DNA of 64,000 nt, from the NCBI RefSeq assembly GCF_011045215.1, contig NZ_CP049201.1; one strand, 5' to 3'. Source of the DNA: Escherichia coli. Its GTDB lineage: Bacteria; Pseudomonadota; Gammaproteobacteria; Enterobacterales; Enterobacteriaceae. The notes under the pieces were generated by a model that worked only from the letters and a program-made list of their open reading frames with translations, was not told the DNA's origin and did not search any database. The position numbers and the translations under genes are program-made. This document shows, one piece after another, positions 12,429 through 27,386 of the stretch; within the stretch, counting starts at the first letter, position 1; the number at the start of each line of letters is the position of its first letter.

Positions 12429-13123
12429 TGCAGATCCTCAAAGTGATCGGCCTGTTGATGGAGTATCCGGACGAGCTGTTGTGGGAATGCAAGGAGGACG
12501 CGCTGGCGTTGATCCGCCGCGACGCGCCGATGCTTACGGATTTCACCCACAACCTGCTTAACGCGCCGCTGCTGGATAAACAGGCCGAATGGTGCGAAGT
12601 GTTTGACCGCGGGCGCACTACGTCGCTGCTGCTGTTCGAACATGTTCATGCCGAGTCCCGCGATCGCGGCCAGGCAATGGTGGACCTGCTGGCGGAGTAT
12701 GAAAAGGTCGGCCTGCAGCTGGATTGTCGGGAACTGCCCGATTATCTACCGCTGTATCTGGAGTATTTAAGCATACTGCCTGACGATCAGGCGAAAGAAG
12801 GATTGCTCAATGTTGCGCCGATCCTCGCCCTGCTTGGCGGTCGCTTAAAACAACGCGAGGCACCGTGGTACGCGTTGTTTGATGCTCTGCTGCAACTGGC
12901 GGGAAGTACACTTTCAAGTGACAGTGTCACAAAACAAGTAAACAGCGAAGAGCGCGATGACACCCGCCAGGCGCTTGATGCAGTGTGGGAAGAGGAACAG
13001 GTGAAGTTTATTGAAGATAACGCCACGGCGTGTGACAGCTCGCCGCTTAATCAATATCAGCGACACTTTAGCCAGGATGTCGCGCCGCAGTATGTCGATA
13101 TCAGTGCGGGAGGTGGGAAATGA
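12428..13123 (+). CDS. narW: Nitrate reductase 2 assembly chaperone NarW
   Basis: 231 aa, [18 protein letters not shown]; position in operon. Confidence 0.9.
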
Positions 13124-13800
13124 TTCAGTATCTGAACGTCTTTTTTTACGATATCTACCCGTACATTTGTGCGACGGTGTTTTTCCTCGGCAGCTGGCTG
13201 CGCTACGACTACGGGCAGTACACCTGGCGCGCCTCCTCAAGTCAAATGCTCGATAAACGCGGGATGGTGATATGGTCGAATCTGTTCCATATTGGCATTT
13301 TGGGGATTTTCTTCGGGCACCTGTTCGGCATGTTAACGCCGCACTGGATGTACGCGTGGTTTTTGCCGGTGGCAGCGAAACAACTAATGGCGATGGTGCT
13401 CGGAGGCATTTGCGGTGTGTTGACGTTGATTGGTGGCGCAGGACTGCTGTGGCGCAGGCTGACAAATCAGCGCGTGCGTGCCACTTCCACTACGCCGGAT
13501 ATCATCATCATGAGCATTTTGCTGGTCCAGTGTCTGTTGGGGCTAAGCACCATACCGTTTTCAGCACAGTATCCTGATGGTAGCGAAATGATGAAGCTGG
13601 TGGGTTGGGCGCAAAGCATTGTCACTTTCCGTGGTGGATCGTCAGAGATGCTTAACGGTGTAGCGTTCGTTTTCCGCCTGCATCTGGTGTTGGGAATGAC
13701 CATCTTCCTGCTCTTCCCGTTCACTAGACTGGTGCATGTGTGGAGCGCGCCGTTTGAGTACTTTACTCGTCGGTATCAGATTGTGCGTTCGCGGCGATAA
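13120..13800 (+). CDS. narV: Nitrate reductase 2 gamma subunit NarV (cytochrome b)
   Basis: 226 aa membrane protein, [15 protein letters not shown]; overlaps narW stop. Confidence 0.9.
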
Positions 13801-13879
13801 TTTTCACCCTGGCCGGATAGCCCTTCGCTCTCCGGCCACTTGCAGGCTATGATAGTTCTCCAGTCACAGGAGAACGTTA

Positions 13880-14773
13880 ATGAAACCGCAGGTTTACCAC
13901 GTCGATGCTTTTACCTCTCAACCATTTCGCGGCAATTCTGCCGGTGTTGTTTTCCCCGCCGATAATCTTAGCGAAGCGCAAATGCAGCTTATCGCCCGCG
14001 AATTAGGTCATTCGGAAACTGCTTTTCTGCTGCACAGCGACGACGGCGATGTGCGCATCCGCTACTTTACGCCAACCGTTGAAGTGCCAATTTGTGGTCA
14101 CGCGACAGTAGCTGCGCACTATGTACGTGCGAAGGTGTTAGGTTTAGGAAATTGCACGGTCTGGCAAACATCGCTGGCAGGAAAACATCGCGTGACTATC
14201 GAAAAGCACCACGATGGTTATCGTATTTCGCTGGAACAAGGTACGCCGGGCTTTGAGCCACCGCTGGAAGGTGAAACACGTGCGGCGATTATCAACGCGC
14301 TTCATCTCACTGAGGACGATATTCTGCCAGGCTTGCCAATTCAGGTGGCAACAACAGGACACTCAAAAGTGATGATCCCACTGAAACCGGAAGTGGATAT
14401 CGACGCCCTTTCGCCTGACCTTAATGCGCTGACCGCTATCAGCAAACAGATTGGCTGCAATGGTTTCTTCCCGTTCCAGATCCGCCCAGGCAAAAACGAA
14501 ACCGATGGTCGCATGTTCTCGCCTGCGATTGGTATTGTGGAAGATCCGGTGACTGGCAATGCCAATGGCCCGATGGGTGCATGGTTGGTACATCACAACG
14601 TATTGCCCCACGATGGCAAGGTGCTGCGTGTTAAAGGCCATCAGGGGCGCGCATTGGGGCGTGACGGCGTGATTGAAGTGACGGTGACAATTCGTGATAA
14701 CCAACCGGAAAAAGTCACCATTTCTGGCGCGGCGGTGATTTTGTTTCATGCCGAATGGGCAATTAAACTCTGA
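13880..14773 (+). CDS. yddE: PhzF-family isomerase-like protein YddE
   Basis: 297 aa, MKPQVYHVDAFTSQPFRGNSAGVVF (PhzF-like). Confidence 0.85.
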   Translation: MKPQVYHVDAFTSQPFRGNSAGVVFPADNLSEAQMQLIARELGHSETAFLLHSDDGDVRIRYFTPTVEVPICGHATVAAHYVRAKVLGLGNCTVWQTSLAGKHRVTIEKHHDGYRISLEQGTPGFEPPLEGETRAAIINALHLTEDDILPGLPIQVATTGHSKVMIPLKPEVDIDALSPDLNALTAISKQIGCNGFFPFQIRPGKNETDGRMFSPAIGIVEDPVTGNANGPMGAWLVHHNVLPHDGKVLRVKGHQGRALGRDGVIEVTVTIRDNQPEKVTISGAAVILFHAEWAIKL

Positions 14774-14780
14774 AACCGTT

Positions 14781-14856
14781 GCCTGATGCGCTTCGCTTAT
14801 CAGGTCTACAACCGAGCTAATGTATGCCGGATAAGGCGTTTACGCCGCATCCGGCA
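14781..14856. repeat. REP/BIME element (two REP units) between yddE and nhoA
   Basis: gcctgatgcgcttcgcttatcaggtctaca and gccggataaggcgtttacgccgcatccggca are classic REP palindromes. Confidence 0.75.
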
Positions 14857-14868
14857 ACCTGACATAAA

Positions 14869-15714
14869 TTATTTTCCCGCCTCCGGGTGCGTATCAAACG
14901 CCGCCATCACCAGCGCTAACTCATCCACGGTTAAGCCATGTTTCGCATCATCCACGCCCAGACCAAACTGTTCTTGCATCACAGCATATAACGACGCCAC
15001 ATCCGGTAGATTTCGCTGCTCCACAGCGTGCCCATTTTCATAATGGGTAAAATGAAAATTGGTCAGTGTCAGCTTGCCGCCGTCCGGCAAATGGCGGCAC
15101 ATCAGCAAATGATGGCGAAAATGCGACTGCGGCCAGTGCGCCGACCAGAAATTGCCCATCACATAATCGCTTTGTTGCTGCTCGCAGAGATCAAAACGGT
15201 ACATCGACTGCCAATGCTGATGATGATTAAACTGCAACACCCAATCATCACCCTCCTGCAACAACCGATACTCTCCGTGTGGCGTGGTCTGCACGAGATC
15301 GGGAACTAAACGAATCGGCGCGGTTAGCGTCTGCCCACCGAAACCGACATCAGCAATCCATTTTTCCTCTTCCAGTTCCACCAACAGCAAACGATGGGTG
15401 CGCGGGGGTAATGCTGGCGGATTTGATAACACTACCCGCCCTAACAAGCTGCGAACGTGAAACCCCAGCTCGCGTAACACCCGCTCAAACACGCCATTCT
15501 GCTCAAAACAGTAACCGCCACGACGGGCTATCACGAGTTTCTCTTCCAGCGATTGATCATCAAGCTGCATTTCCCTCGGCAGCAAAACGTCGAGGTTTTC
15601 AAACGGAATGGTGCAATTGTGTTTCAGGTGCAATGCACGAAGCGTATCAATATTGACCGCAGCAGTTCCCGACCAGTTAATACGGGCAAAATAGTGATTC
15701 AGAATGGGCGTCAT
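14869..15714 (-). CDS. nhoA: Arylamine N-acetyltransferase / N-hydroxyarylamine O-acetyltransferase NhoA
   Basis: 281 aa, MTPILNHYFARINWSG...GGYCFEQN (NAT catalytic Cys motif). Confidence 0.9.
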   Translation of the reverse strand: MTPILNHYFARINWSGTAAVNIDTLRALHLKHNCTIPFENLDVLLPREMQLDDQSLEEKLVIARRGGYCFEQNGVFERVLRELGFHVRSLLGRVVLSNPPALPPRTHRLLLVELEEEKWIADVGFGGQTLTAPIRLVPDLVQTTPHGEYRLLQEGDDWVLQFNHHQHWQSMYRFDLCEQQQSDYVMGNFWSAHWPQSHFRHHLLMCRHLPDGGKLTLTNFHFTHYENGHAVEQRNLPDVASLYAVMQEQFGLGVDDAKHGLTVDELALVMAAFDTHPEAGK

Positions 15715-15886
15715 CAGGCGTTTCCCTTAGTGGTTTTCTCAACTTATAACCTGGAATAGACGCCGCACCGGCTATTTTGTGCGATCGCGGACATGCATCA
15801 CGTTCGCAAATCGCCAATCCCGTTAATTTCGTTACTTATTGCGTTACGGACTACGCTTAAAAAAACCTTCTTCGCGAGGCGATACC

Positions 15887-16456
15887 ATGAGCCGATTCAT
15901 CCCCATAGAATTACACCATGCCAGCCGTCTGTTAAATCATGGCCCAACTGTCTTGATCACCAGTTTCGATGAGCAATCCCAGCGGCGTAACATTATGGCT
16001 GCAGCCTGGTCAATGCCGGTGGAGTTTGAACCTCCACGCGTGGCGATTGTGGTAGATAAATCGACATGGACCAGGGAGTTGATTGAACATAACGGTAAAT
16101 TTGGCATCGTTATCCCGGGCGTTGCAGCAACTAACTGGACGTGGGCAGTGGGAAGTGTATCTGGGCGTGAAGAAGATAAATTTAATTGCTACGGCATTCC
16201 GGTGGTGAAAGGTCCGGTGCTTGGTTTGCCACTTGTTGAAGAGAAATGCCTGGCGTGGATGGAGTGCCGCCTGCTACCTGCGACTTCTGCGCAACAAAAA
16301 TACGACACGCTGTTTGGCGAGGTGGTATCAGCAGCGGCAGACGCACGGGTATTTGTCGAAGGCCGCTGGCAGTTTGATGATGATAAGCTCAATACGTTGC
16401 ATCATTTAGGTGCTGGCACGTTTGTTACCAGCGGCAAGCGAGTTACGGCAGGTTAA
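15887..16456 (+). CDS. yddH: Flavin reductase-like protein YddH
   Basis: MSRFIPIELHHASRLLNHGP; ATG at 15887 gives the recalled 189 aa. Confidence 0.8.
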   Translation: MSRFIPIELHHASRLLNHGPTVLITSFDEQSQRRNIMAAAWSMPVEFEPPRVAIVVDKSTWTRELIEHNGKFGIVIPGVAATNWTWAVGSVSGREEDKFNCYGIPVVKGPVLGLPLVEEKCLAWMECRLLPATSAQQKYDTLFGEVVSAAADARVFVEGRWQFDDDKLNTLHHLGAGTFVTSGKRVTAG

Positions 16457-16459
16457 GCA

Positions 16460-16687
16460 TTACATGCTGTAACCGGGTTTCTTTATCAAAGCCTCCATTT
16501 GGGGCGCGATTTCGGCATCCCAGATAGCTTGCCAAGATTCTGGTTGAATCTGCTGTAGAGCAATGCTTATCGAAATGTCTTTACTGTTCAGATGGCGAAT
16601 AATAACGTCGGTAATATCTGCAGCAAGTGCTGCTTTTTGTTGTTCGTCCAGTTCACGCGGAAAACATTTAATGTCGATGTGCGGCAT
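16460..16687 (-). CDS. pptA: Tautomerase PptA (4-oxalocrotonate tautomerase family)
   Basis: [33 protein letters not shown]; Pro2 tautomerase signature; ATG at 16685-16687 with an upstream AGGAG. Confidence 0.85.
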
Positions 16688-16978
16688 GATTGTGCTCCTT
16701 TTGAAAGATGTCAGTAAAATTAACACACATTGTGAATGTCGTATGTCCGGTGATGCGTTTTTACGACAATAATGCCTACTTGAAATTGTAGATATTTGCA
16801 CTACACCCTTTTAAATAAAGCACCAACAAATCGTCAACTTGCAGAACATATTCTTCTGCCTACATACCATTAAGAAAACATCAAGTTTCCGACTTGCCAA
16901 TTTATTAATGCCCATTATAGACGCTGAAACAAGCCACGGACAAAGAAGATGCCAAAATTACCGGCGATGCAGAAAAAC

Positions 16979-17350
16979 TCAACGAACCAGGGCAAGATTA
17001 CGAAAGCCCGCTCCCGCAAGGACTGACGCCAGATAGTTTCTGTCCATGGCTGCTTTTCGCATCTTACGTCTTAACCCTGCCTTGAATACCTTATCATTCG
17101 TCAAAATATTAATAGCAATGTGCCGTATCCCTGAAAATAATTCTGCAGCATTTCCTCTTCTTATTTTGCAGTCGTCTTCATTCATTACCACGTCCAGACG
17201 CCAGTGCAGCTTATTCTCCACGTGCCAGTGGTTTCGGATTGCTGTGGCGAACTTCTCTGCGGTTAAATCAGCAGAACTGATATAATATCTGACCGTCATT
17301 TCTGGCTCTTTCTTTTGTTCTGCTATTATTGACCGAAAGGAGACTGCCAC
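16979..17350 (-). mobile_element. Truncated H-repeat-associated (ISAs1-family) transposase remnant, C-terminal 123 aa only
   Basis: [30 protein letters not shown] is the conserved C-terminal DDE region of H-rpt/ISAs1 transposases (K-12 ydcC/yncI lie at the equivalent place). The N-terminal two-thirds is missing. Confidence 0.7.
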
Positions 17351-17667
17351 GCATAATTTCTTCAGTCCTTTCCATTCAAACGTGAAATCAATAAGTTCAT
17401 CAGGGACATCGCAAACAATATGAAGACGGATTTCTTCTCTGCCGTGACTAAAATGCGAATTATTTAGTACAAAAAAAGCGGCGCACCTTGTTCTTTCCCA
17501 GATTCCTAATATGGCAACTTTAAGTTATCGCCGTCTATACTTATAGAAATTTCATCAGGGGTGACGTAAATAGAATTTTTTTCATCCTCAATTGCCCATA
17601 ACTGATTAATAAAAAAGTATTTTTTTCATCTAATAAAAAATTATCACATGTAGTAAAATTATTAATA

Positions 17668-18327
17668 TCAAAAAAAATCATCAGCACAATTAATTTTTAA
17701 ATTTAAAAAATAAAGAAAAATATTATTGATTGATTTGAGTGTAAACCACTTGTCATTAACAAATTTATAGCCAGATGATTTTATAAAATAATAATTATCT
17801 CCTGGTATAAAGGCATACATATCATTTAAGGTTATACTCAACAAAAAACTACGACCTGGTTTAATAGTATTCCACCGTTCAGGATTCGTATTAATTTCAA
17901 AAGGACATGAACCACCTAAGTAGTCCAACGTGATATTCCCAGAGTTGATTCTGAATGGTTTTTTGCATATCGCATCATATTCATCTCCTTTTCCATCTTT
18001 TACTTTCATAGGTAGATAATATTTAGAAAAAAAATACGTGGTAGAGCTATTGTTAGTAAAGGTTATGTTAGCAAAAATCCTGTTATTTTTTTTACTCATA
18101 GCTAATTGAGCATTGACATCCGCTATATAATTTATATGATTACATTTTTTCTTACACTCATCATAATTTTCGATAGGATAAATTAATGGCCTTCCTTTGA
18201 TATCTCTCTCAAGCCCAAACCCGTATTTTTTTATTAAAACCATTTCATCCGCAGTCGATTGAAAGGAATAGAAAAATATAATATTTACGATTGTCATTAT
18301 TATGATTTTTTTTATAGCTTGCAGCAT
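17668..18327 (-). CDS. Hypothetical exported protein (219 aa) with N-terminal signal peptide; AT-rich island ORF
   Basis: Hydrophobic N-terminus IIIMTIVNIIFFYSFQSTADE; strongly AT-rich; no family recognised. Confidence 0.45.
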   Translation of the reverse strand: MLQAIKKIIIMTIVNIIFFYSFQSTADEMVLIKKYGFGLERDIKGRPLIYPIENYDECKKKCNHINYIADVNAQLAMSKKNNRIFANITFTNNSSTTYFFSKYYLPMKVKDGKGDEYDAICKKPFRINSGNITLDYLGGSCPFEINTNPERWNTIKPGRSFLLSITLNDMYAFIPGDNYYFIKSSGYKFVNDKWFTLKSINNIFLYFLNLKINCADDFF

Positions 18328-18350
18328 TAATATATTTCTCGACTTATTAG

Positions 18351-18653
18351 TTAATGGAGAAGTGCTTTTTCTAATTCCGCTATTTTTTTCTTAACTGAAT
18401 TGCTTAATATTTCATCATTAATCGAGTCTATCTCACTTTCAATTAATCTTATTTCAAAATATCTTTCTATGTTATATGCATTCTCAAATATTTGATCTTT
18501 TTGTTTAGAGATCAGTTTAGTTGCAATACGGATATGTTCGTCATATGAAACTTCATCCTCTTTGCACGTTGAATATTTATCAGTAGTTGTATAATTCTGT
18601 GACCACATACCACCTTTTTTATTATCCCCATAATACCACTGAATATGAGACAT
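18351..18653 (-). CDS. Hypothetical small protein (100 aa), candidate immunity or accessory protein
   Basis: ATG at 18651-18653 with GGAAAGGA upstream; AT-rich; inside the VgrG island. Confidence 0.4.
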   Translation of the reverse strand: MSHIQWYYGDNKKGGMWSQNYTTTDKYSTCKEDEVSYDEHIRIATKLISKQKDQIFENAYNIERYFEIRLIESEIDSINDEILSNSVKKKIAELEKALLH

Positions 18654-18691
18654 TTCATGACATAAAGTAGCAACATGAGAATCCTTTCCCG

Positions 18692-19141
18692 TTACTGGAT
18701 TTTTTTGCCATCTCTATACTCAAATTTTGCGCCTATGTTAATTATATAGGGCATATCCTTACTTGGGCTGACGAATGCTGCAAATTCATTACAACCTGTA
18801 TAATTTATAAAACTGCTCATTGTTAAATCATTAGCTATAATCATTAATCTTCTCACACCATCCATCATAAGAAATCTAGCATTCATGCGCCTAACTGTAT
18901 TATGTCCATATTTTCTTATATTAACTTCCTTATTTCCTTTAACACCAAAGATCTTACTGAAATCATATTCCTCCTGTGCTCCCCATCTCAAAAGATCATC
19001 TGCTCTTTTTATCAAAACCAACTTTTGTGCCTTACGAACCTTATCAATCATTATTTTAAAATGATCAGTTATTTTTTGCTCTTTCACACATTCTTCTGGC
19101 TCTGGCTTTGGTTGTCCAGAAGTTTGATTATTATCGTCCAT
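18692..19141 (-). CDS. Hypothetical protein (149 aa from the ATG with an RBS; the longest ORF runs to 19198)
   Basis: GGAAGGA then ATG (MDDNNQTSGQ...) at 19141; AT-rich; no recognisable domain. Confidence 0.4.
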   Translation of the reverse strand: MDDNNQTSGQPKPEPEECVKEQKITDHFKIMIDKVRKAQKLVLIKRADDLLRWGAQEEYDFSKIFGVKGNKEVNIRKYGHNTVRRMNARFLMMDGVRRLMIIANDLTMSSFINYTGCNEFAAFVSPSKDMPYIINIGAKFEYRDGKKIQ

Positions 19142-19327
19142 AGTGTCCTTCCATTGAGAGAAAATCATCATTCGCAAATAGCAACTAAAAAGCAGCATTA
19201 CTTGACCTTTCCCTGCATAACAATATTTATAAAATAATACGTTTTATGATCTCACCTTGGGCTCCCAACAAGATAATTTCAGTTTTAAAGACTTTCACGA
19301 AAAAATATAGAAATACCTCACCACCCT

Positions 19328-19618
19328 TCACTTACCAATTAATCTCACAGGAAATCCAACTTCCTTACCACAAATACAATCCCAAGTAACATTTCCCAAA
19401 ATTTTTGATACTTTAGGCTGCAATGGCATTATTGACATTATAAATTTATCAAGTTCTTCGCTATATTTAATTCCCTTTATATTTCTTATTATTGATATTC
19501 TAGCAGTAAAGATAGCCGTCTCTCCATCTACACTAAAAGTGTAATTACAATTTTTTGTAATCTCATCAAATTCAACCGATAACAAATCAATATTATGGTT
19601 TGTAAACACTATGCCCAT
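19328..19618 (-). CDS. Putative cognate immunity protein (96 aa) for the upstream T6SS toxin
   Basis: Start overlaps the toxin stop by 26 nt, a typical toxin-immunity arrangement; small and AT-rich. Confidence 0.5.
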   Translation of the reverse strand: MGIVFTNHNIDLLSVEFDEITKNCNYTFSVDGETAIFTARISIIRNIKGIKYSEELDKFIMSIMPLQPKVSKILGNVTWDCICGKEVGFPVRLIGK

Positions 19619-21032
19619 TCCATACCTCCTTAAATTCCTGTTCAGTCATCAGATATCGACTCCCTTGATATGGATCATATATTATCACATTCCCAGCATC
19701 ATCAACACCCTTAACAAGTACCCAATGTCCTACTTTACTTCCAGAATCCCACATCATTGCTCCCCATGAACCAGTATTACTGAGGGCATATAAACTAGAT
19801 TCGCTCACTGCATTCCCTTCCCAGCCGACATCAAATTTATTAAGCTTGTTTGCCAGCGACGTCATAGATGTTAATTCTGTTCCAATTACATTTTGCGTGA
19901 CAAAAATATACCTATCCCTAAGCAACATTTCCCCACAGGCCGCTCCACAGCCTGTTAAAGTCAATTGCTTTATTACATTTGAATCTAAAACCTCATCAAA
20001 TACTGTCCAATTGCCACCAGCACCACCTTCTAAAACTACCGGCTCTACAAATACTTTCCCAGAGATATTTTCTTCTGGTATTTTTGCGGGTATCATAAAG
20101 CCCCATAAAAAGCTGGAAAAATGCTCCAGAGCAATCTGATCACCATTATTTGCATCCATTATCATTTTTTTAAGTGCATCCCATGCTTGCCCATTTATCA
20201 ATGAATCACTAATATTAAATAAAGCCTGTTCTTTTTCGTTTAAATTTATATTTGCCTGTTCACATAACCCATCTTCGCCTATCGGGCAAGCAACCGTTGC
20301 CGTTGCCGTATCTAACAGAGCATCGAATGTAACTAAGGCTAAATCCGCCACACCATGTAAAGTGGTGATTGCTCCATTCCCCATTTGAGTAAGTGTGTTC
20401 TCTCCAAACCATTCTCTAATTTGAGATTTATCTCCTTCAATACCATTCCTGAGAGATTCTCTGATATTCTTTATTGAAAAAAACTCCCCCCATGATTGGT
20501 CAGGATCTTTTATTTGGAATAAATCATTTTTAACCTCAGGTGAAATATCTCCGTCAAAAATATTACCAACAGAGAGGAGATCCTTCAGAAGCAGTAAATC
20601 GTGTATTACTTCAGCAGTCCTTTCATAATTAAAACTTCTATCAATGACAGAAATCATTGGTGATTTTATTTTGGTATATAATTTACCAAGGCAGTTATGG
20701 TTATTAATCCCAACAACTGAACCATGATAAGCAACAGGTTTCCCTTCTATTGTTACAGTCGGACTTCCCGTTAAAATAACACAGTCACCCGTTCCTTGAG
20801 ATGTACCGGATATGACACCTTTACCGGCATTACTTTGAGTTCCAGCAATCACTGAACCAACATTTAAAGCTCTGCATCCACGCGCCCATACCGTTGAACT
20901 GTACTGTCTTTCACTATCTAAAGTCTGGTAACTGTCAAAAGGAACCTTGTAACCTCCTACTTCACATACATCTGGTGAAGTACACACGACTCTAAATCTA
21001 GATTCACCATCCCCGATATGATAGTTACCCAT
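19593..21032 (-). CDS. T6SS polymorphic toxin: N-terminal PAAR-like (DUF4150-type) domain, C-terminal papain-like cysteine peptidase (C39-like) domain; 479 aa
   Basis: N-terminus VCTSPDVCEVGG...GSPTVTIEGKPVAYHGS resembles PAAR-like spike-capping domains. C-terminus has a CGAAC motif at residues 362-366 and GHWVLV...D...IYDP at 436-453, a Cys/His/Asp arrangement like peptidase C39 folds. Follows vgrG and the DUF2169-like gene. Confidence 0.6.
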   Translation of the reverse strand: MGNYHIGDGESRFRVVCTSPDVCEVGGYKVPFDSYQTLDSERQYSSTVWARGCRALNVGSVIAGTQSNAGKGVISGTSQGTGDCVILTGSPTVTIEGKPVAYHGSVVGINNHNCLGKLYTKIKSPMISVIDRSFNYERTAEVIHDLLLLKDLLSVGNIFDGDISPEVKNDLFQIKDPDQSWGEFFSIKNIRESLRNGIEGDKSQIREWFGENTLTQMGNGAITTLHGVADLALVTFDALLDTATATVACPIGEDGLCEQANINLNEKEQALFNISDSLINGQAWDALKKMIMDANNGDQIALEHFSSFLWGFMIPAKIPEENISGKVFVEPVVLEGGAGGNWTVFDEVLDSNVIKQLTLTGCGAACGEMLLRDRYIFVTQNVIGTELTSMTSLANKLNKFDVGWEGNAVSESSLYALSNTGSWGAMMWDSGSKVGHWVLVKGVDDAGNVIIYDPYQGSRYLMTEQEFKEVWNGHSVYKP

Positions 21033-22071
21033 AATATTTTTTCCCTATACATTCAGGAATAATACAACTCAGCACTCCTTCTTTCATTCCAAAAAAATCA
21101 GGTATTGTTAATCTCCAGGTAAGGTATATTTCCTGTCGACTTAAATCGATAACCATTGTATCCGCAACAGGTAAGAACATATGTGATGTATTATGCTTGG
21201 TTTTTAATATAAGTACAGGTCGTATACCTGGCAATTTTGTCTTAACAACCTGTTCAAATTTAAAAAAACCTTCAAGAGAGATGTTTTCATCGCCAGAGAG
21301 AAACCCCGTGTATATCATATCCGGATGAGCACTATTGTAGAACCGCTCATCAAAATCATCCGGCAAATAGGGATAGCGCTTTTCACGCCATACTTCATTG
21401 TAGGTTCCTGCATACTGGAGGCGACTTTTCCACCATCGAGATACAGGGCCAACACCTTGAAAAAAGTCAGATTCCCCATTAAAAATGGTAGCGTTTTCTG
21501 ACAAAGCAGAGCTGGTTATTTGTGGGAGTTTATATTGACAACTTGTATTAAGTTGGGAAATATCAGGATAATATCCACAACCTACAGGGTTTGCTGAAAA
21601 AACCAATTTCTCCATACCATCTGGTTGCCAAATACCACCGTAAGCAAGCTCATAGCGTAGAGGAATATTAATAATTTTATCTGGTAAGCTCATCTGCCAA
21701 CGATTTCGCTCATATTGTAAGTAGCGGACACCAGATAAACTCAGTTCTTTAGAAAAACTATTAACCCTCACACAAGCCTTCCACTGAGACTTATCCCCTG
21801 AAGGGGCATGAGCACTACCTGTCACGTGAATATCTGTATTTCTTTTACAAAGAACTAAGTCTGTTTCAGATTTTAGACTACTTGTTTCAGGCTCCCCATA
21901 GTATTCATCAGACATGGACAATTCTCTTTGAAATTCAGCAAGATCAGCATAAAATCCATTTTTAATTCGCAATGACATTTTAATAGCAATAACATCAAAC
22001 AAAAGACCATAACGACCATATTTTTCAAATGACAACAAAGGAAATGGCGTGTTATTTTTCATTTCTATCAT
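21025..22071 (-). CDS. DUF2169-like T6SS adaptor/chaperone protein (348 aa)
   Basis: Called mainly by context: lies between vgrG and a PAAR-like toxin, and its stop overlaps the toxin start by 8 nt (translational coupling). Confidence 0.5.
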   Translation of the reverse strand: MIEMKNNTPFPLLSFEKYGRYGLLFDVIAIKMSLRIKNGFYADLAEFQRELSMSDEYYGEPETSSLKSETDLVLCKRNTDIHVTGSAHAPSGDKSQWKACVRVNSFSKELSLSGVRYLQYERNRWQMSLPDKIINIPLRYELAYGGIWQPDGMEKLVFSANPVGCGYYPDISQLNTSCQYKLPQITSSALSENATIFNGESDFFQGVGPVSRWWKSRLQYAGTYNEVWREKRYPYLPDDFDERFYNSAHPDMIYTGFLSGDENISLEGFFKFEQVVKTKLPGIRPVLILKTKHNTSHMFLPVADTMVIDLSRQEIYLTWRLTIPDFFGMKEGVLSCIIPECIGKKYYG

Positions 22072-22177
22072 GCTTATTGATCCCTGAATAAGTCATGCTA
22101 TGATTAATTTAAACAATCACAAATGGTGATTCACAGGCGTATAAAGCAAATACAATCACCATGTTTTATATTCTGCA

Positions 22178-24160
22178 CTATCCGTTCAGATGAATATCTT
22201 TTCCTTTAATATCTACAGGACCGGTAGCCTCAAATAGAAACTCCGTCCCCCGTATTATTATCTTTCCTGTTTTCTCCAGTTTTATGGAACAAGTCCCGCT
22301 CTCTCCCTGCCCACAAATTAGCTCAATACTGTCCCCAGATATGATTTTTGTACCATGCTCAACTTTCAGTTCGTAATTATCACCTATTTTAATACTCTGT
22401 TTTTTGACGACTTCTTCGGTATCAGTTCCCGTCACCTTGCTTGTCTGGTTGTTATTCACAACCTTGTGCCGGTCATTTTTTATCGTGAGATGCTGATCGT
22501 TCGCTACCGTCACTTTCTGGTCATGACCACCTTCCTTTTTGCTCCCCACATTCACCGTCTGGCCCTTCACCACCGTTATCTTCTGGTTGTTACCGATGGT
22601 TTCCGTATGGTCATGTTTCACATCCGTTGTCCGGTCGTTGAGCACCTCCGTATCCATGTTCTTCTGGGCATGGATATACACCTGCTCATTACTGGTGGCG
22701 TCTTCAAACCGTAGCTCGTTAAATCCGCTTCCTTTATAGGTTTTTGACCGGATGGTCATCTGCGTCTTCGTTCCCGGCAGGTCGCCCGGGGAGCGGTTAT
22801 CTTCATGGTAGGTCCGTCCCGTGACGATGGGCTGGTCCGGGTCGCCGTTCAGGAAGTCAACAATCACCTCCTGGCCCACCCGCGGTATCGCCAGGTTACC
22901 GAACCCCGGCCCCGCCCACGCCTGCGATACCCGCACCCAGCATGAACTCGCCTCCGTCATCCCGTGATAACGGTCCCAGTGGAACTTCACCCGTACCCGG
23001 CCATGTTCGTCGCAGAATATCTCCTCACCCTTCGGCCCGGTCACAATGGCACTCTGCGGCCCGTCCACCTTCGGTTTGCTTTGCAGCCGTGGACGCCACG
23101 TCCGGTCTGCCGGTATCACCTCTAACTGATTTCCCAGCGTGGTTCCCCTCCCCTGGCTGCCGTGCAGCGCCTGCGGCTGGCTTCCTGACAGTATGCTCTG
23201 TACCACCTGCCATTCACGGTTCAGCATCTTCTGCGGATGCCCCGTCAGCGTAAACCGCGTTCCCGGCCACAGCTTCGGTGAATTACTCTGCCCTGTGGCC
23301 TTTTCCGCATCACTGCGCAGGCTGTCCATCTGGTACAGCGTGAAATCCTTGCCGTGCTGCTCATCCTTGAACCTTCCCGGATAATCAAATATCTCGTACT
23401 GCGCCAGCTGTCCGTTCAGGTTCTCACCCTGCTGCTCATACATCCCCGGCCAGTCCGGCACCTTAAACGTGTAATCCTGACTCTGCACCGACGACGGGCG
23501 GACATGCGCCTCATAACGGAACGTACTGAGACACTCCGTCTCCGCTCCTGCCGATGTGTCCGGGTTAAACGGAAGCTCTCCCGCCTGTGACAGCCCCGCC
23601 ACATCGTCGCACAGCGTCAGCTTCTGCTCCGGGCTGTCCGCCGCAAACCGCTCAAAGAAGAAAATCCCCTCCTCCGCCCACAGCCGCGCCAGAAACGCCA
23701 GGTCGCTCTCTCCGTACTGGACACAGAACTCCCGCGCCGGATGGTCTTCATAAAACAGCGGCGTCCACTCCGTGACGCCGTTCTCATTCAGTAACGTGGC
23801 CGATATCGTCCGGATATCCTGCTGCTGGAAGATACGGAAGTTCTGCCGCAGCCCGCACCGCCATAACGGCGGCTCAATACGCAGGTGATAACGCATCTGC
23901 CAGCCATTGTTCTCCTGCATGCCAAAACCCGCCACCACGCCGGTGACATAACGCAGCGGGATGACGCCCTGCCAGATGGTCAGCGTCGCCTTCTTCTCCA
24001 GCAGCATCTCCGCCGTCTGCATAAAAGAGTCGCTGGCAACATCCACACTCATCACAAACGGATATGACTGGTTCTGGATTAACCTGAAGCTCACCACTGC
24101 AAAGGTGTCCGGCTCCTGGCCGTCAACCTCCAGCGTAAAGCGCAGACCTTTTAAGGACAT
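22178..24160 (-). CDS. vgrG: Type VI secretion spike protein VgrG (660 aa)
   Basis: N-terminus MSLKGLRFTLEVDGQEPDTFAVVSFRLIQ and central gp27/gp5-like regions (IFDYPGRF, HWDRYHG, VGQEVIVDFLNGDPDQPIVTGRTYH) are hallmark VgrG motifs. The C-terminal third is AT-rich and repetitive. Confidence 0.88.
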   Translation of the reverse strand: MSLKGLRFTLEVDGQEPDTFAVVSFRLIQNQSYPFVMSVDVASDSFMQTAEMLLEKKATLTIWQGVIPLRYVTGVVAGFGMQENNGWQMRYHLRIEPPLWRCGLRQNFRIFQQQDIRTISATLLNENGVTEWTPLFYEDHPAREFCVQYGESDLAFLARLWAEEGIFFFERFAADSPEQKLTLCDDVAGLSQAGELPFNPDTSAGAETECLSTFRYEAHVRPSSVQSQDYTFKVPDWPGMYEQQGENLNGQLAQYEIFDYPGRFKDEQHGKDFTLYQMDSLRSDAEKATGQSNSPKLWPGTRFTLTGHPQKMLNREWQVVQSILSGSQPQALHGSQGRGTTLGNQLEVIPADRTWRPRLQSKPKVDGPQSAIVTGPKGEEIFCDEHGRVRVKFHWDRYHGMTEASSCWVRVSQAWAGPGFGNLAIPRVGQEVIVDFLNGDPDQPIVTGRTYHEDNRSPGDLPGTKTQMTIRSKTYKGSGFNELRFEDATSNEQVYIHAQKNMDTEVLNDRTTDVKHDHTETIGNNQKITVVKGQTVNVGSKKEGGHDQKVTVANDQHLTIKNDRHKVVNNNQTSKVTGTDTEEVVKKQSIKIGDNYELKVEHGTKIISGDSIELICGQGESGTCSIKLEKTGKIIIRGTEFLFEATGPVDIKGKDIHLNG

Positions 24161-24178
24161 AAATACCTCTCAGACATA

Positions 24179-24463
24179 TCAGCCTATATTTACCGTACCG
24201 CCACCAATGACCACGCCGCCGCAGTCAACAGCATCACCGCTTCTGGCGGCGGGCAGGCCGTCAATAAAGACGGTTGAAGAACCTCTGGCGATTTTACGGG
24301 GATGAGGGGGATGCTTCGGTTTAGCATGCGGCGTCAGCGGATCTCCCTGACGGGCTGCGGGGAGACCATCGATAAAAACGGTGGATGACCCGGCGGTGAT
24401 GACGGTCTCGTAATAACCGTCGTGCTGAGTGCCTTTGTCGGTGAGTTTGGCTGCTAAAGGCAT
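24179..24463 (-). CDS. PAAR-repeat protein (T6SS spike tip), 94 aa
   Basis: Two copies of SSTVFIDGLPAAR(Q/S)GD plus an N-terminal AAKLTD motif; 18 nt upstream of vgrG on the same strand. Confidence 0.75.
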   Translation of the reverse strand: MPLAAKLTDKGTQHDGYYETVITAGSSTVFIDGLPAARQGDPLTPHAKPKHPPHPRKIARGSSTVFIDGLPAARSGDAVDCGGVVIGGGTVNIG

Positions 24464-25002
24464 AATTTCTCCTGTTCAGAATTTCTACAGCAGCAGGTTT
24501 CAAAAATCCGGAGAAATATTCAACGAAATATTAATCACTTCACCGGATATTCTGATACGTACCTTCACTGGTCTATTTAAGTAATACAAATTGTTGGCGT
24601 GTATTAAGTTCCATTTTGTTCTCCTTAATTATGTAAGGAGTATTTGATCATGTATAAGCAATAAAAACAGCTTCAGGAAATAAGGAATATCGCAATTTTT
24701 AAACATAAAATGCGAATCGTTCAATACAAAAAAGCAGCGTTGCGTAATCTTTCCCTGATTAAATACGCTACCGCCCTACCCTGATGACATGATCTGCACT
24801 GCACTATCATATCGACATGTTTCTCTACATGCGAAAAGATGTTTTATTTTCGGATTATATTAAATTGACATTTCATATAAAAAACGAAATTACATCAATC
24901 ATATAAATAATTGTACCAACTTTAATTACTATTCATAGCAAACAAATGGATATCCAGTTAACTACGCCAGTGATTCATTAACATTAACCTCCGGCATTAT
25001 TG

Positions 25003-25620
25003 TTAAATAATGACATTCCTTTTTAATACTTCTTGTAATTTCGGTAACTGACATACTGCATCAGCAATCGCACTGATATTCGTGGCATTATCCTGAAACC
25101 ATTCATGCCCAGGCCCCCATGTGCGCATAGTGCAAAGATAACAGTCCACCAGCGTTAGTTGCTCACCAAACGCATAAGGTTCAGCGGTCAATTGTGAATT
25201 CAGCCAGATATAAAGCGATTTACGATATTCAATAACATTCTTCTTTAACTGTTCAGGTGCGTCAGATGCCCAACGCTCAGGGTAATCGGCGAAAGTGAAT
25301 GTTGGATAGACATTAGCAACCAGCCAGACCAATAGCCGTTGAAACTGCTGACGTTCGGCGCGCCCAACCGGTGGCGCAAGGTCCGGGCGACGATCGAGAA
25401 CCATCAATGCAATCGCCGCTGTCTCCGTCATAATCTCGTCATTTTCCAGAGCCAGTGTCGGAACCTGACACAACGGGTTCAGGGTTTTCAATAACTCGCG
25501 TGAAGTTCCCTCGTGGTCAAAACCACTGACATCAACGAACTGATAAGGAATATCAGCTAGTGTTAGCATCAGCTCACTGATTGTAGAGCCCCATCCGGGT
25601 ACGCCATACACCTTAATCAT
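25003..25620 (-). CDS. yncG: Glutathione S-transferase homolog YncG
   Basis: 205 aa, MIKVYGVPGWGSTISELMLTLADIPYQFVDV (GST N-terminal fold). Confidence 0.85.
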   Translation of the reverse strand: MIKVYGVPGWGSTISELMLTLADIPYQFVDVSGFDHEGTSRELLKTLNPLCQVPTLALENDEIMTETAAIALMVLDRRPDLAPPVGRAERQQFQRLLVWLVANVYPTFTFADYPERWASDAPEQLKKNVIEYRKSLYIWLNSQLTAEPYAFGEQLTLVDCYLCTMRTWGPGHEWFQDNATNISAIADAVCQLPKLQEVLKRNVII

Positions 25621-25886
25621 ATGCCCCTCACAATCTTTTAAAGATTAAGTGTAGGACAGTACACAGGTTAACCAGCAAAAGGATTTGTCATTTTTTCGTC
25701 AGTTGTATTGATCCCCTTCAGGATTGTAAGGGGATGTTTTGCATCGTTTATCGATAACGGGTAGGATGCTGCGCCGATAGTTTTATACCCATAAAGAATA
25801 ATGGTGATAACTATCATCGCCAGGATGAATAAACATTGTTCATGGCAACTTATATGACTTTTTCATTAAAGCAATCAGGGAGAGCA

Positions 25887-27386
25887 ATGAGTAAACACGA
25901 CACCGACACTTCAGATCAACACGCCGCGAAACGCCGCTGGCTTAATGCCCACGAAGAGGGGTATCACAAAGCGATGGGCAATCGCCAGGTGCAGATGATC
26001 GCCATTGGCGGCGCGATTGGTACGGGTTTGTTTTTAGGCGCAGGAGCCCGACTGCAAATGGCGGGGCCAGCACTGGCATTGGTCTATTTGATCTGCGGCC
26101 TGTTTTCATTTTTTATTCTGCGTGCATTGGGTGAGCTGGTGTTACACCGCCCTTCCAGTGGCAGTTTTGTCTCTTATGCCCGCGAGTTTTTGGGTGAGAA
26201 AGCCGCTTATGTTGCGGGCTGGATGTACTTCATCAACTGGGCGATGACGGGGATTGTCGATATCACCGCCGTCGCTCTGTATATGCATTACTGGGGTGCG
26301 TTTGGCGGCGTGCCGCAGTGGGTCTTTGCGCTCGCTGCACTTACCATCGTTGGCACCATGAATATGATCGGTGTGAAATGGTTTGCGGAGATGGAGTTCT
26401 GGTTTGCGCTTATTAAAGTGCTCGCCATTGTGACCTTTTTGGTCGTGGGTACAGTGTTCCTCGGTAGTGGTCAGCCGCTGGATGGCAACACCACTGGCTT
26501 TCATTTAATCACCGATAATGGCGGCTTCTTCCCCCACGGTTTGCTGCCTGCGCTGGTGTTGATTCAGGGCGTAGTGTTTGCTTTTGCCTCCATTGAAATG
26601 GTGGGTACAGCTGCCGGAGAATGTAAAGATCCGCAGACCATGGTGCCTAAAGCCATTAACAGTGTGATTTGGCGTATTGGCCTGTTTTACGTCGGCTCCG
26701 TGGTGTTGCTGGTTATGTTATTGCCGTGGAGCGCGTATCAGGCGGGGCAAAGTCCGTTCGTGACGTTTTTCTCTAAACTGGGTGTGCCATATATCGGCAG
26801 CATTATGAACATTGTGGTGCTGACCGCTGCCCTCTCCAGCCTGAACTCAGGCCTGTACTGCACCGGGCGTATTCTGCGCTCGATGGCGATGGGCGGTTCC
26901 GCACCGAGTTTTATGGCGAAAATGAGTCGTCAGCATGTGCCGTATGCCGGGATTCTGGCGACACTGGTTGTGTATGTCGTCGGCGTATTCCTCAACTATC
27001 TGGTGCCGTCGCGCGTATTTGAGATTGTGTTGAACTTCGCGTCGCTGGGAATCATCGCTTCATGGGCGTTTATCATCGTGTGCCAGATGCGCCTGCGTAA
27101 AGCGATTAAAGAAGGCAAAGCAGCGGATGTCAGTTTTAAACTGCCTGGCGCGCCCTTCACTTCCTGGCTGACATTACTGTTTTTACTGAGTGTCCTTGTG
27201 CTGATGGCGTTCGATTACCCGAACGGGACTTATACTATCGCGGCGCTGCCGATTATCGGTATTCTGCTGGTTATAGGCTGGTTTGGTGTGCGCAAACGCG
27301 TTGCTGAAATTCACAGCACTGCGCCAGTCGTCGAGGAAGATGAAGAAAAACAGGAAATCGTGTTTAAGCCTGAAACGGCGAGCTAA
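25887..27386 (+). CDS. ansP: L-asparagine permease AnsP (APC family)
   Basis: MSKHDTDTSDQHAAKRRWLNAHEEGYHKAMGNRQVQMIAIGGAIGTGLF; 499 aa from the ATG at 25887. Confidence 0.9.
   Translation: MSKHDTDTSDQHAAKRRWLNAHEEGYHKAMGNRQVQMIAIGGAIGTGLFLGAGARLQMAGPALALVYLICGLFSFFILRALGELVLHRPSSGSFVSYAREFLGEKAAYVAGWMYFINWAMTGIVDITAVALYMHYWGAFGGVPQWVFALAALTIVGTMNMIGVKWFAEMEFWFALIKVLAIVTFLVVGTVFLGSGQPLDGNTTGFHLITDNGGFFPHGLLPALVLIQGVVFAFASIEMVGTAAGECKDPQTMVPKAINSVIWRIGLFYVGSVVLLVMLLPWSAYQAGQSPFVTFFSKLGVPYIGSIMNIVVLTAALSSLNSGLYCTGRILRSMAMGGSAPSFMAKMSRQHVPYAGILATLVVYVVGVFLNYLVPSRVFEIVLNFASLGIIASWAFIIVCQMRLRKAIKEGKAADVSFKLPGAPFTSWLTLLFLLSVLVLMAFDYPNGTYTIAALPIIGILLVIGWFGVRKRVAEIHSTAPVVEEDEEKQEIVFKPETAS

Follow-up and report, generated by a model that had tools for sequence, protein, structure and literature searches.

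The DNA at 16988-17501 on the minus strand of the 64,000-nucleotide stretch of Escherichia coli sequence analysed here (the window) is, with a probability of about 0.9, a dead copy of ISEc1, the 'H-repeat' (H-rpt), an insertion sequence of the ISAs1 family; it has undergone an internal deletion of approximately 777 bp, and represents the same insertion as the ydcC element of K-12. Nothing found contradicts the identity of the element, which is both ordinary and already known, being treated as a pseudogene by automatic annotation in hundreds of genomes.

Anatomy and identity of the relic

[quoted passage not shown] The K-12 ydcC element so delimited is 1,291 bp long (L003 11673-12963, K-12 locus numbering), a value with which the published length of H-rpt/ISEc1 agrees, and the CAGGG tip seen in these K-12 copies is that with which, according to ISfinder, the terminal inverted repeats of ISAs1 begin. 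Deployed as a blastn query against the window, the ydcC element matched with nt 829-1291 at 17449-16988 (98.06% over 463 columns) and with nt 26-52 at 17475-17449 (96%), a third match placing nt 1-155 at a separate site, 24757-24604. The resultant anatomy is as follows.

16988..17501 (514 bp), minus strand: whole ISEc1/H-rpt relic, delimited by blastn with the K-12 ydcC element and by left-end alignment to the left inverted repeat (IRL) at 17501
16988..17449, minus strand: right arm, ISEc1 nt 830-1291 (462 bp), encoding YdcC residues ~229-377 including the inferred catalytic E306 (HVENKLH)
17450..17501, minus strand: left arm, ISEc1 nt 1-52, with a degenerate IRL, first base 17501
16979..17350, minus strand: 123-aa ORF starting at the first in-frame GTG and containing the peptide quoted in the preliminary description

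The deletion junction lies between 17449 and 17450 (CGCATTTT / AGTCACGG; 28-nt sequence AATTCGCATTTTAGTCACGGCAGAGAAG), where nt 1-52 are fused directly to nt 830-1291 and nt 53-829 are missing. The right inverted repeat (IRR) is intact, ending ...TTTCGTAATCTTGCCCTG, also given as ...CTTGCCCTG, with its terminus at 16988. At the opposite end the IRL reads CTGGGAAAGAAC... in place of CAGGGAAAGATC... (CTGGG versus CAGGG, a substitution at position 2), and retains 22 of 32 matches to the external IRL against a whole-window background maximum of 20/32. The preliminary description had considered the element truncated, with only its C-terminal part remaining: that is accurate for the detectable protein homology, but the alignment to intact H-rpt copies which it had proposed as a check reveals an internal deletion with both inverted repeats present.

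A simple 5' truncation, in which the incoming neighbouring island broke the IS internally and removed the N-terminal two-thirds of the transposase gene, would be in keeping with the detection of a C-terminal protein part only, and with the label 'ISAs1 family transposase, incomplete, missing N-terminus' which PGAP assigns to the same relic in O145, AP027877 and PapM-32-1. It is nevertheless refuted by the left-end alignment, the 52 nt beside the island being the ISEc1 left end with its inverted repeat, and is extremely unlikely. The same IRL/island junction is present in O145, AP027877, FDAARGOS_1301 and PapM-32-1, and in FDAARGOS_1301 this identical junction is joined to a different internal IS segment (a remnant of nt ~1-72 plus 621-783), pptA also having been lost. 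Since the IRL stands at the island junction in two types of remnant, the island must border the outer end of an element that was formerly complete, and what was lost came from its interior; the FDAARGOS_1301 remnant further shows that such a complete element at this position has decayed along separate paths in different lineages.

Neither the internal deletion junction nor the deletion endpoints beside the IRR have more than 1 nt of microhomology, which gives no indication of a repeat-mediated mechanism. A target-site duplication, which in the ISAs1 family is 8-10 bp long, is absent, the flanks (...attaggaat and gttcgttga...) sharing no repeat, as one would anticipate had the neighbouring DNA subsequently been removed or exchanged.

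At the protein level, tblastn with YdcC residues 226-377 gave 96% identity in the right arm, and the homology covers about 150 residues (YdcC 226/229-377) instead of the ~123 previously estimated, the latter being the count from the first in-frame GTG. The extended open frame at 16979-17458 scored 127.9 bits (E=4.7e-37) against NCBIfam NF033564, 'ISAs1 family transposase', for which the cutoff is 70 bits, and the 123-aa ORF matched Pfam DDE_Tnp_1 at 6e-9; together with the blastn identity, these values uphold the original recognition of an ISAs1-family H-rpt transposase remnant, a recognition that had been made dependent on such similarity. However, the match of the relic is confined to the final third of the model (positions 204-314 of 314), whereas intact YdcC scores 416 bits over positions 1-314. 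Although the family cutoff is passed, the complete domain architecture with D, D and E is lacking; likewise, where a full-length copy has ~1.29 kb and a single intact transposase ORF, the relic has 514 bp, no nt 53-829 and a frameshifted 3' end. As judged from these profile matches, it is a fragment of an ISAs1-family transposase and not a functional member of the family.

Coding capacity and distribution

Intact YdcC consists of DDE_Tnp_1_assoc (aa 9-94) followed by DDE_Tnp_1 (aa 102-343), whereas in the relic Pfam detects DDE_Tnp_1 profile positions 139-200 of 200 only, and no DDE_Tnp_1_assoc. Both the AIDGK (D109) and TTDAMG (D172) motifs were within the deleted part, leaving HVENKLH (E306) as the sole survivor of a catalytic triad assigned by reference to IS4-like DDE motifs. 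The transposase start codon (ISEc1 nt 145) was lost with the same deletion, as presumably were the promoter and ribosome-binding site in the region upstream. In addition, a 1-bp deletion in the C-run at 17013-17015 (ISEc1 nt 1263), confined to the window copy among the eight copies compared, shifts the frame near the 3' end, so that the 123-aa ORF reads through the IRR into the flank and stops at 16979; this frameshift is a later event than the internal deletion. With its start codon, N-terminal domain and two inferred catalytic residues gone, and its 3' end frameshifted, the relic cannot make transposase and is without activity of its own.

The frame nonetheless remains open from the IRL to the stop (up to 159 codons), and apart from the frameshifted tail the encoded sequence equals the consensus of the other seven copies compared, its only two differences from K-12 YdcC both falling at sites where K-12 stands alone against all the remaining copies. 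Such conservation might be read as a sign that the fragment has been domesticated for some cellular function, such as inhibition or regulation, but that reading is scarcely credible: the fusion point and its vicinity lack a start codon, the earliest being the GTG at 17350; the C-terminus is frameshifted in the window copy; another lineage has a different, non-overlapping remnant of the same insertion; PGAP treats the sequence as a pseudogene; and the right arm holds too few substitutions for selection to be assessed.

A promoter and terminator consensus scan of 16400-17800 returned eight promoter-like sites against 4.4 ± 2.1 expected and nothing compelling, and an Rfam scan of 13000-27000 at gathering thresholds returned no RNA family. 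A promoter-like site at 16914-16943 on the minus strand (TTGTCC-18-TATAAT, 10/12), pointing toward pptA across the sulfatase-deletion junction at 16919/16920 (see below), is probably fortuitous.

The distribution of the relic was surveyed in 5,426 complete E. coli genomes, a hit requiring at least 80% coverage of the query. With a 97-nt query for the deletion junction alone there were 219 such genomes, and with 39 nt of island flank added to the junction there were 221; these figures give no hint that the derivative occurs elsewhere or has behaved as a MITE. The counts bear on the notion that intact ISEc1 copies continue to mobilise the 514-bp derivative in trans, as the retention of both termini and the presence of intact copies in many E. 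coli genomes might allow. Besides the want of extra contexts, the substitution at position 2 of the IRL and the missing target-site duplication both tell against such mobility, as does the fact that among the O145 genomes listed the relic is the only match to the 97-nt query, which detected no other ISEc1 copy there; MITE-like mobilisation is accordingly very unlikely.

The dead, locus-bound copy of ISEc1 shows few SNPs in its right arm. The window differs from strain EC1515 at five sites in nt 848-945 and the comparison is uninformative thereafter. A clean crossover between a PapM/O145-like island and an EC1515-like flank was considered, but is not apparent in the SNP mosaic; a crossover within nt 946-1291 would be allowed by the SNPs, though it is not shown by them. 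More generally, an arm of 462 bp and ~98% identity might serve as the distal crossover point in inter-strain cassette exchange, a putative anchoring role with which the sequence data are compatible.

The bordering island and the pptA flank

On its IRL side the relic adjoins an orphan type VI secretion (T6SS) effector island, in which, and at the far edge of which, two further H-rpt relics were located.

24604..24757 (154 nt), minus strand: second H-rpt relic, ISEc1 nt 1-155 (IRL through transposase codon 4), 88.4% over 155 columns
17502..24603, minus strand: T6SS orphan effector island bordered by the relics (ORFs and Pfam)
24179-24463, minus strand: PAAR (Pfam)
22178-24160, minus strand: VgrG, 660 aa (Pfam)
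21025-22071, minus strand: DUF2169 (Pfam)
19593-21032, minus strand: PAAR-like/C39 toxin (Tox-PAAR-like/peptidase-C39, 479 aa; Pfam)
19328-19618, minus strand: 96-aa ORF (ORF list)
19184..19215, minus strand: third H-rpt relic, a 32-nt IRL, CAGGGAAAGGTCAAGTAATGCTGCTTTTTAGT, with 27/32 matches to the external IRL against a background maximum of 20/32
18351-19198, minus strand: M35 peptidase, frameshifted (ORFs of 168 and 100 aa)
17668-18327, minus strand: hypothetical protein, 219 aa (ORF list)

The GC content of the island is 27-39% except in the VgrG core. The unit at 19593-24463 is the most complete version seen of the PAAR-VgrG-DUF2169-Tox-PAAR-like/C39 arrangement, O145, PapM-32-1 and AP027877 having deletions or an IS600 insertion in VgrG/DUF2169. 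By comparison with PapM-32-1, in which the M35 gene is intact (263 aa) and the adjacent hypothetical gene encodes 247 aa, the window has an M35 gene split by a frameshift near 18701-18707 and a hypothetical protein of 219 aa; the distal, displaced effector module is, on this comparison of reading frames, decaying in this strain.

The second relic, with 29/32 matches to the external IRL, stands at the island edge nearer to yncG and separates the PAAR gene from the yncG flank. The third lies at the toxin/immunity-M35 boundary, between the 96-aa ORF and the M35 gene, and homology to the simpler PAAR-VgrG-M35 island of FDAARGOS_1301 stops at 19186, that is, at this relic, which by this alignment marks a module boundary inside the island. 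All three relics are co-oriented, and all are kept in O145 and PapM-32-1; AP027877 has the middle and distal ones, the stretch compared ending short of the proximal position. Their break points differ, falling after ISEc1 nt 155, 32 and 52, a pattern that argues for serial insertion and decay during cassette accretion and displacement instead of site-specific capture. Integron-like capture of cassettes was rejected on the same grounds, there being different break points and no common crossover site.

No inverted-repeat pair in the region is longer than that formed by the IRL at 24733-24760 and the IRR at 16985-17012 (28 nt, 79% complementary). As the left end at 24757 and the right end at 16988 have the correct relative orientation, the 7.77 kb from 16988 to 24757 could in principle be a single ISEc1-bracketed 'transporter IS', or composite element, in which the T6SS genes would travel as a block of passengers; a proximal left-end fragment also occurs in the PAAR-VgrG-type islands of O145, FDAARGOS_1301 and PapM-32-1, and strain MRSN346647 has H-rpt copies on either side of its Rhs. 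Such a unit is distinctly improbable, however, given that a target-site duplication is absent, that the distal end is the insertion of the K-12 and EC1515 ydcC, both of which are without a proximal H-rpt, that all examples inspected are at the same chromosomal locus, and that the internal third IRL relic fits serial insertion and decay better.

On the other side of the relic the relevant features are as follows.

16460..16687, minus strand: pptA (tautomerase), conserved core-genome-side neighbour (translation MPHIDIK...GYSM followed by a stop; pptA annotation in homologous loci)
16777..16986, strand not applicable: 210-bp scrap between the IRR and the conserved pptA flank (comparison with other strains)

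The gene pptA is indeed the neighbour of the relic, as described previously, but at a distance of 300 bp, made up of 89 bp of conserved flank and the 210-bp scrap. Comparison with MRSN346647, the pptA and intergenic region of which match 16400-16920, identified 16777-16920 as pptA-sulfatase intergenic DNA and 16919-16985 as a 67-bp piece of an alkyl/aryl-sulfatase gene, derived from its 3' end. Of the span 16860-17500 originally attributed to the remnant, 16860-16987 (128 bp) therefore consists of intergenic and sulfatase scraps, while the H-rpt sequence proper occupies 16988-17501.

The order in MRSN346647 is pptA - alkyl/aryl-sulfatase - GGDEF protein - H-rpt (partial) - immunity - RHS core - H-rpt, with an intact sulfatase gene and a GGDEF diguanylate cyclase gene between pptA and the H-rpt (L004 5146-8266). 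AP027877 keeps 509 bp more than the window, made up of the sulfatase gene end, part of a GGDEF gene and a second, degenerate H-rpt right end of 42 nt, whereas in K-12, O145 and PapM-32-1 the 210-bp scrap is missing and the IRR abuts the pptA flank directly. AP027877 and O145/PapM-32-1 are the configurations nearest to that of the window, the 210-bp scrap, relic and island in one piece being found in no complete genome. The window junction between IRR and sulfatase sequence does occur in ~27 complete genomes, where the matched feature is annotated as ydcC or ISAs1 family transposase.

Three different sequences thus adjoin an identical IRR terminus, at nested positions of the MRSN346647-type arrangement, which suggests that other lineages have shed the sulfatase and GGDEF genes in steps, each loss reaching precisely to the IS terminus. 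Nested loss of flanking DNA ending at an IS terminus is the classical footprint of IS-promoted adjacent deletion, and most likely the once-active parent element promoted these deletions; illegitimate recombination, or a single event spread by recombination, could also have produced them. A difference of one G between the K-12 and O145 IRR junctions makes it slightly less certain that the two share an origin.

The second H-rpt right end of AP027877, CCGTCAGTCCTTGTTAAGAGCGAAGATACGTAATCTAGCCAG, lies just outside the IRR (L002 6756-6797), and a 42-nt end of the same type in MRSN346647 (L004 ~8277-8318) is the right end of a diverged H-rpt. These tandem right ends hint at an older H-rpt at the same spot.

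The yncG-pptA locus and comparison with known systems

In the window, genes of the narZ family, yddE, nhoA, yddH and pptA flank the region on one side and yncG and ansP on the other. The same interval in K-12 contains yncH, rhsE (a pseudogene), ydcD, yncI (an H-rpt pseudogene) and, immediately by pptA, intact ydcC, annotated as 'H repeat-associated putative transposase'. In EC1515, the one genome inspected among the ~27 sharing the IRR/sulfatase junction, the order is yncG-yncH-VgrG-RHS core-immunity-(group II intron)-ydcC-[same 210 bp]-pptA, with ydcC intact. Among strains the interval has at least six different cassette contents, of which the PAAR-VgrG-DUF2169-toxin island is the one present here, in agreement with the cassette replacement at a hotspot previously proposed. 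The locus b1455-b1461 is among the recognised Rhs loci listed in PMC3032704 (Table 6), under the name Rhs region 5, for E. coli W, K-12, B and Crooks. A passage of the same paper, citing its ref. 110, states that transposition of H-rpt has reportedly never been observed in E. coli.

The general premise that H-rpt elements sit at the distal end of Rhs elements is supported by K-12, in which rhsB...yhhI, rhsC...ybfQ/ybfL/ybfD and rhsE...yncI/ydcC all have this arrangement. H-repeat relics distal to Rhs or T6SS cassettes have been described since the 1990s. The present relic occupies the same site as the distal H-rpt of K-12 rhsE...ydcC and of EC1515 VgrG-RHS...ydcC, and to that extent its interpretation as the old boundary of an Rhs-type insertion is sound. 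Its right junction is nevertheless not the original boundary, because the sulfatase and GGDEF genes were deleted stepwise up to the end of the element, and no Rhs core ORF is present in the window: blastn gave no match between 13000-26000 and K-12 rhsE/ydcD, nor between 16400-26500 and the RHS core genes of EC1515 or MRSN346647.

From these comparisons it would follow that a complete ISEc1 once lay distal to an effector cassette, at the pptA-proximal edge of the yncG-pptA hotspot (the K-12 RhsE locus). The relic and K-12 ydcC are most probably one insertion, in view of their common orientation, right terminus and neighbour, and the internal deletion has fused the left-end 52 nt to the last 462 nt. 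On this view the relic is the fossilised remainder of the H-rpt that lay beyond the effector cassette of the hotspot, and its role would be historical and passive, that of a marker of H-rpt distal to Rhs and non-Rhs T6SS effector cassettes alike.

A more active part, in which ISEc1 ends would mobilise or capture effector cassettes as transposase-dependent passengers during the assembly of T6SS arrays, is suggested by the three co-oriented left-end relics at module boundaries and by the IRL...IRR pair bracketing the 7.8-kb island; we consider it very unlikely. Were it true, the nested IRR deletions would constitute a first, if indirect, sign that H-rpt transposase has been active in E. coli. 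The fossil matters little alone, but its refined anatomy (an internal deletion retaining both ends, two extra left-end relics at module borders, and stepwise sulfatase/GGDEF loss) provides landmarks for reconstructing the swapping of T6SS cassettes between yncG and pptA, and a modest hint of former H-rpt activity in this species.

Compared with known systems, the closest counterpart is the K-12 ISEc1/H-rptE copy (ydcC, b1460), which has the same site, orientation, right terminus by pptA and left-end sequence. That copy, however, has the full 1,291 bp and a 378-aa ORF, where the relic has lost nt 53-829 and has a CTGGG tip and a 1-bp frameshift, and it is without the 210 bp that separate the relic from the pptA flank. 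Like MITEs and other internal-deletion IS derivatives, the relic keeps both inverted repeats around a gutted transposase gene; unlike MITEs, it is single-copy, fixed at one locus and without a target-site duplication, and shows no evidence of mobilisation.

Other K-12 copies (yncI, ybfL, ybfD and ybfQ, 'inactive transposase') are also decayed H-rpts distal to Rhs/T6SS cassettes, and defective K-12 copies often occur several in tandem in one orientation. The lesions differ, those of the K-12 copies being point mutations or other truncations, whereas the window relics are cut to 514, 154 and 32 nt. The RhsE element at the yncG-pptA locus (b1455-b1461) is the same hotspot, of which EC1515 has the complete form, VgrG-RHS core-immunity-ydcC. 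By contrast, the window has neither Rhs core nor tip at this locus, its VgrG is only ~70% identical to that of EC1515, and its effector genes encode an M35 peptidase and, together with a DUF2169 adaptor, a PAAR-like/C39 protein.
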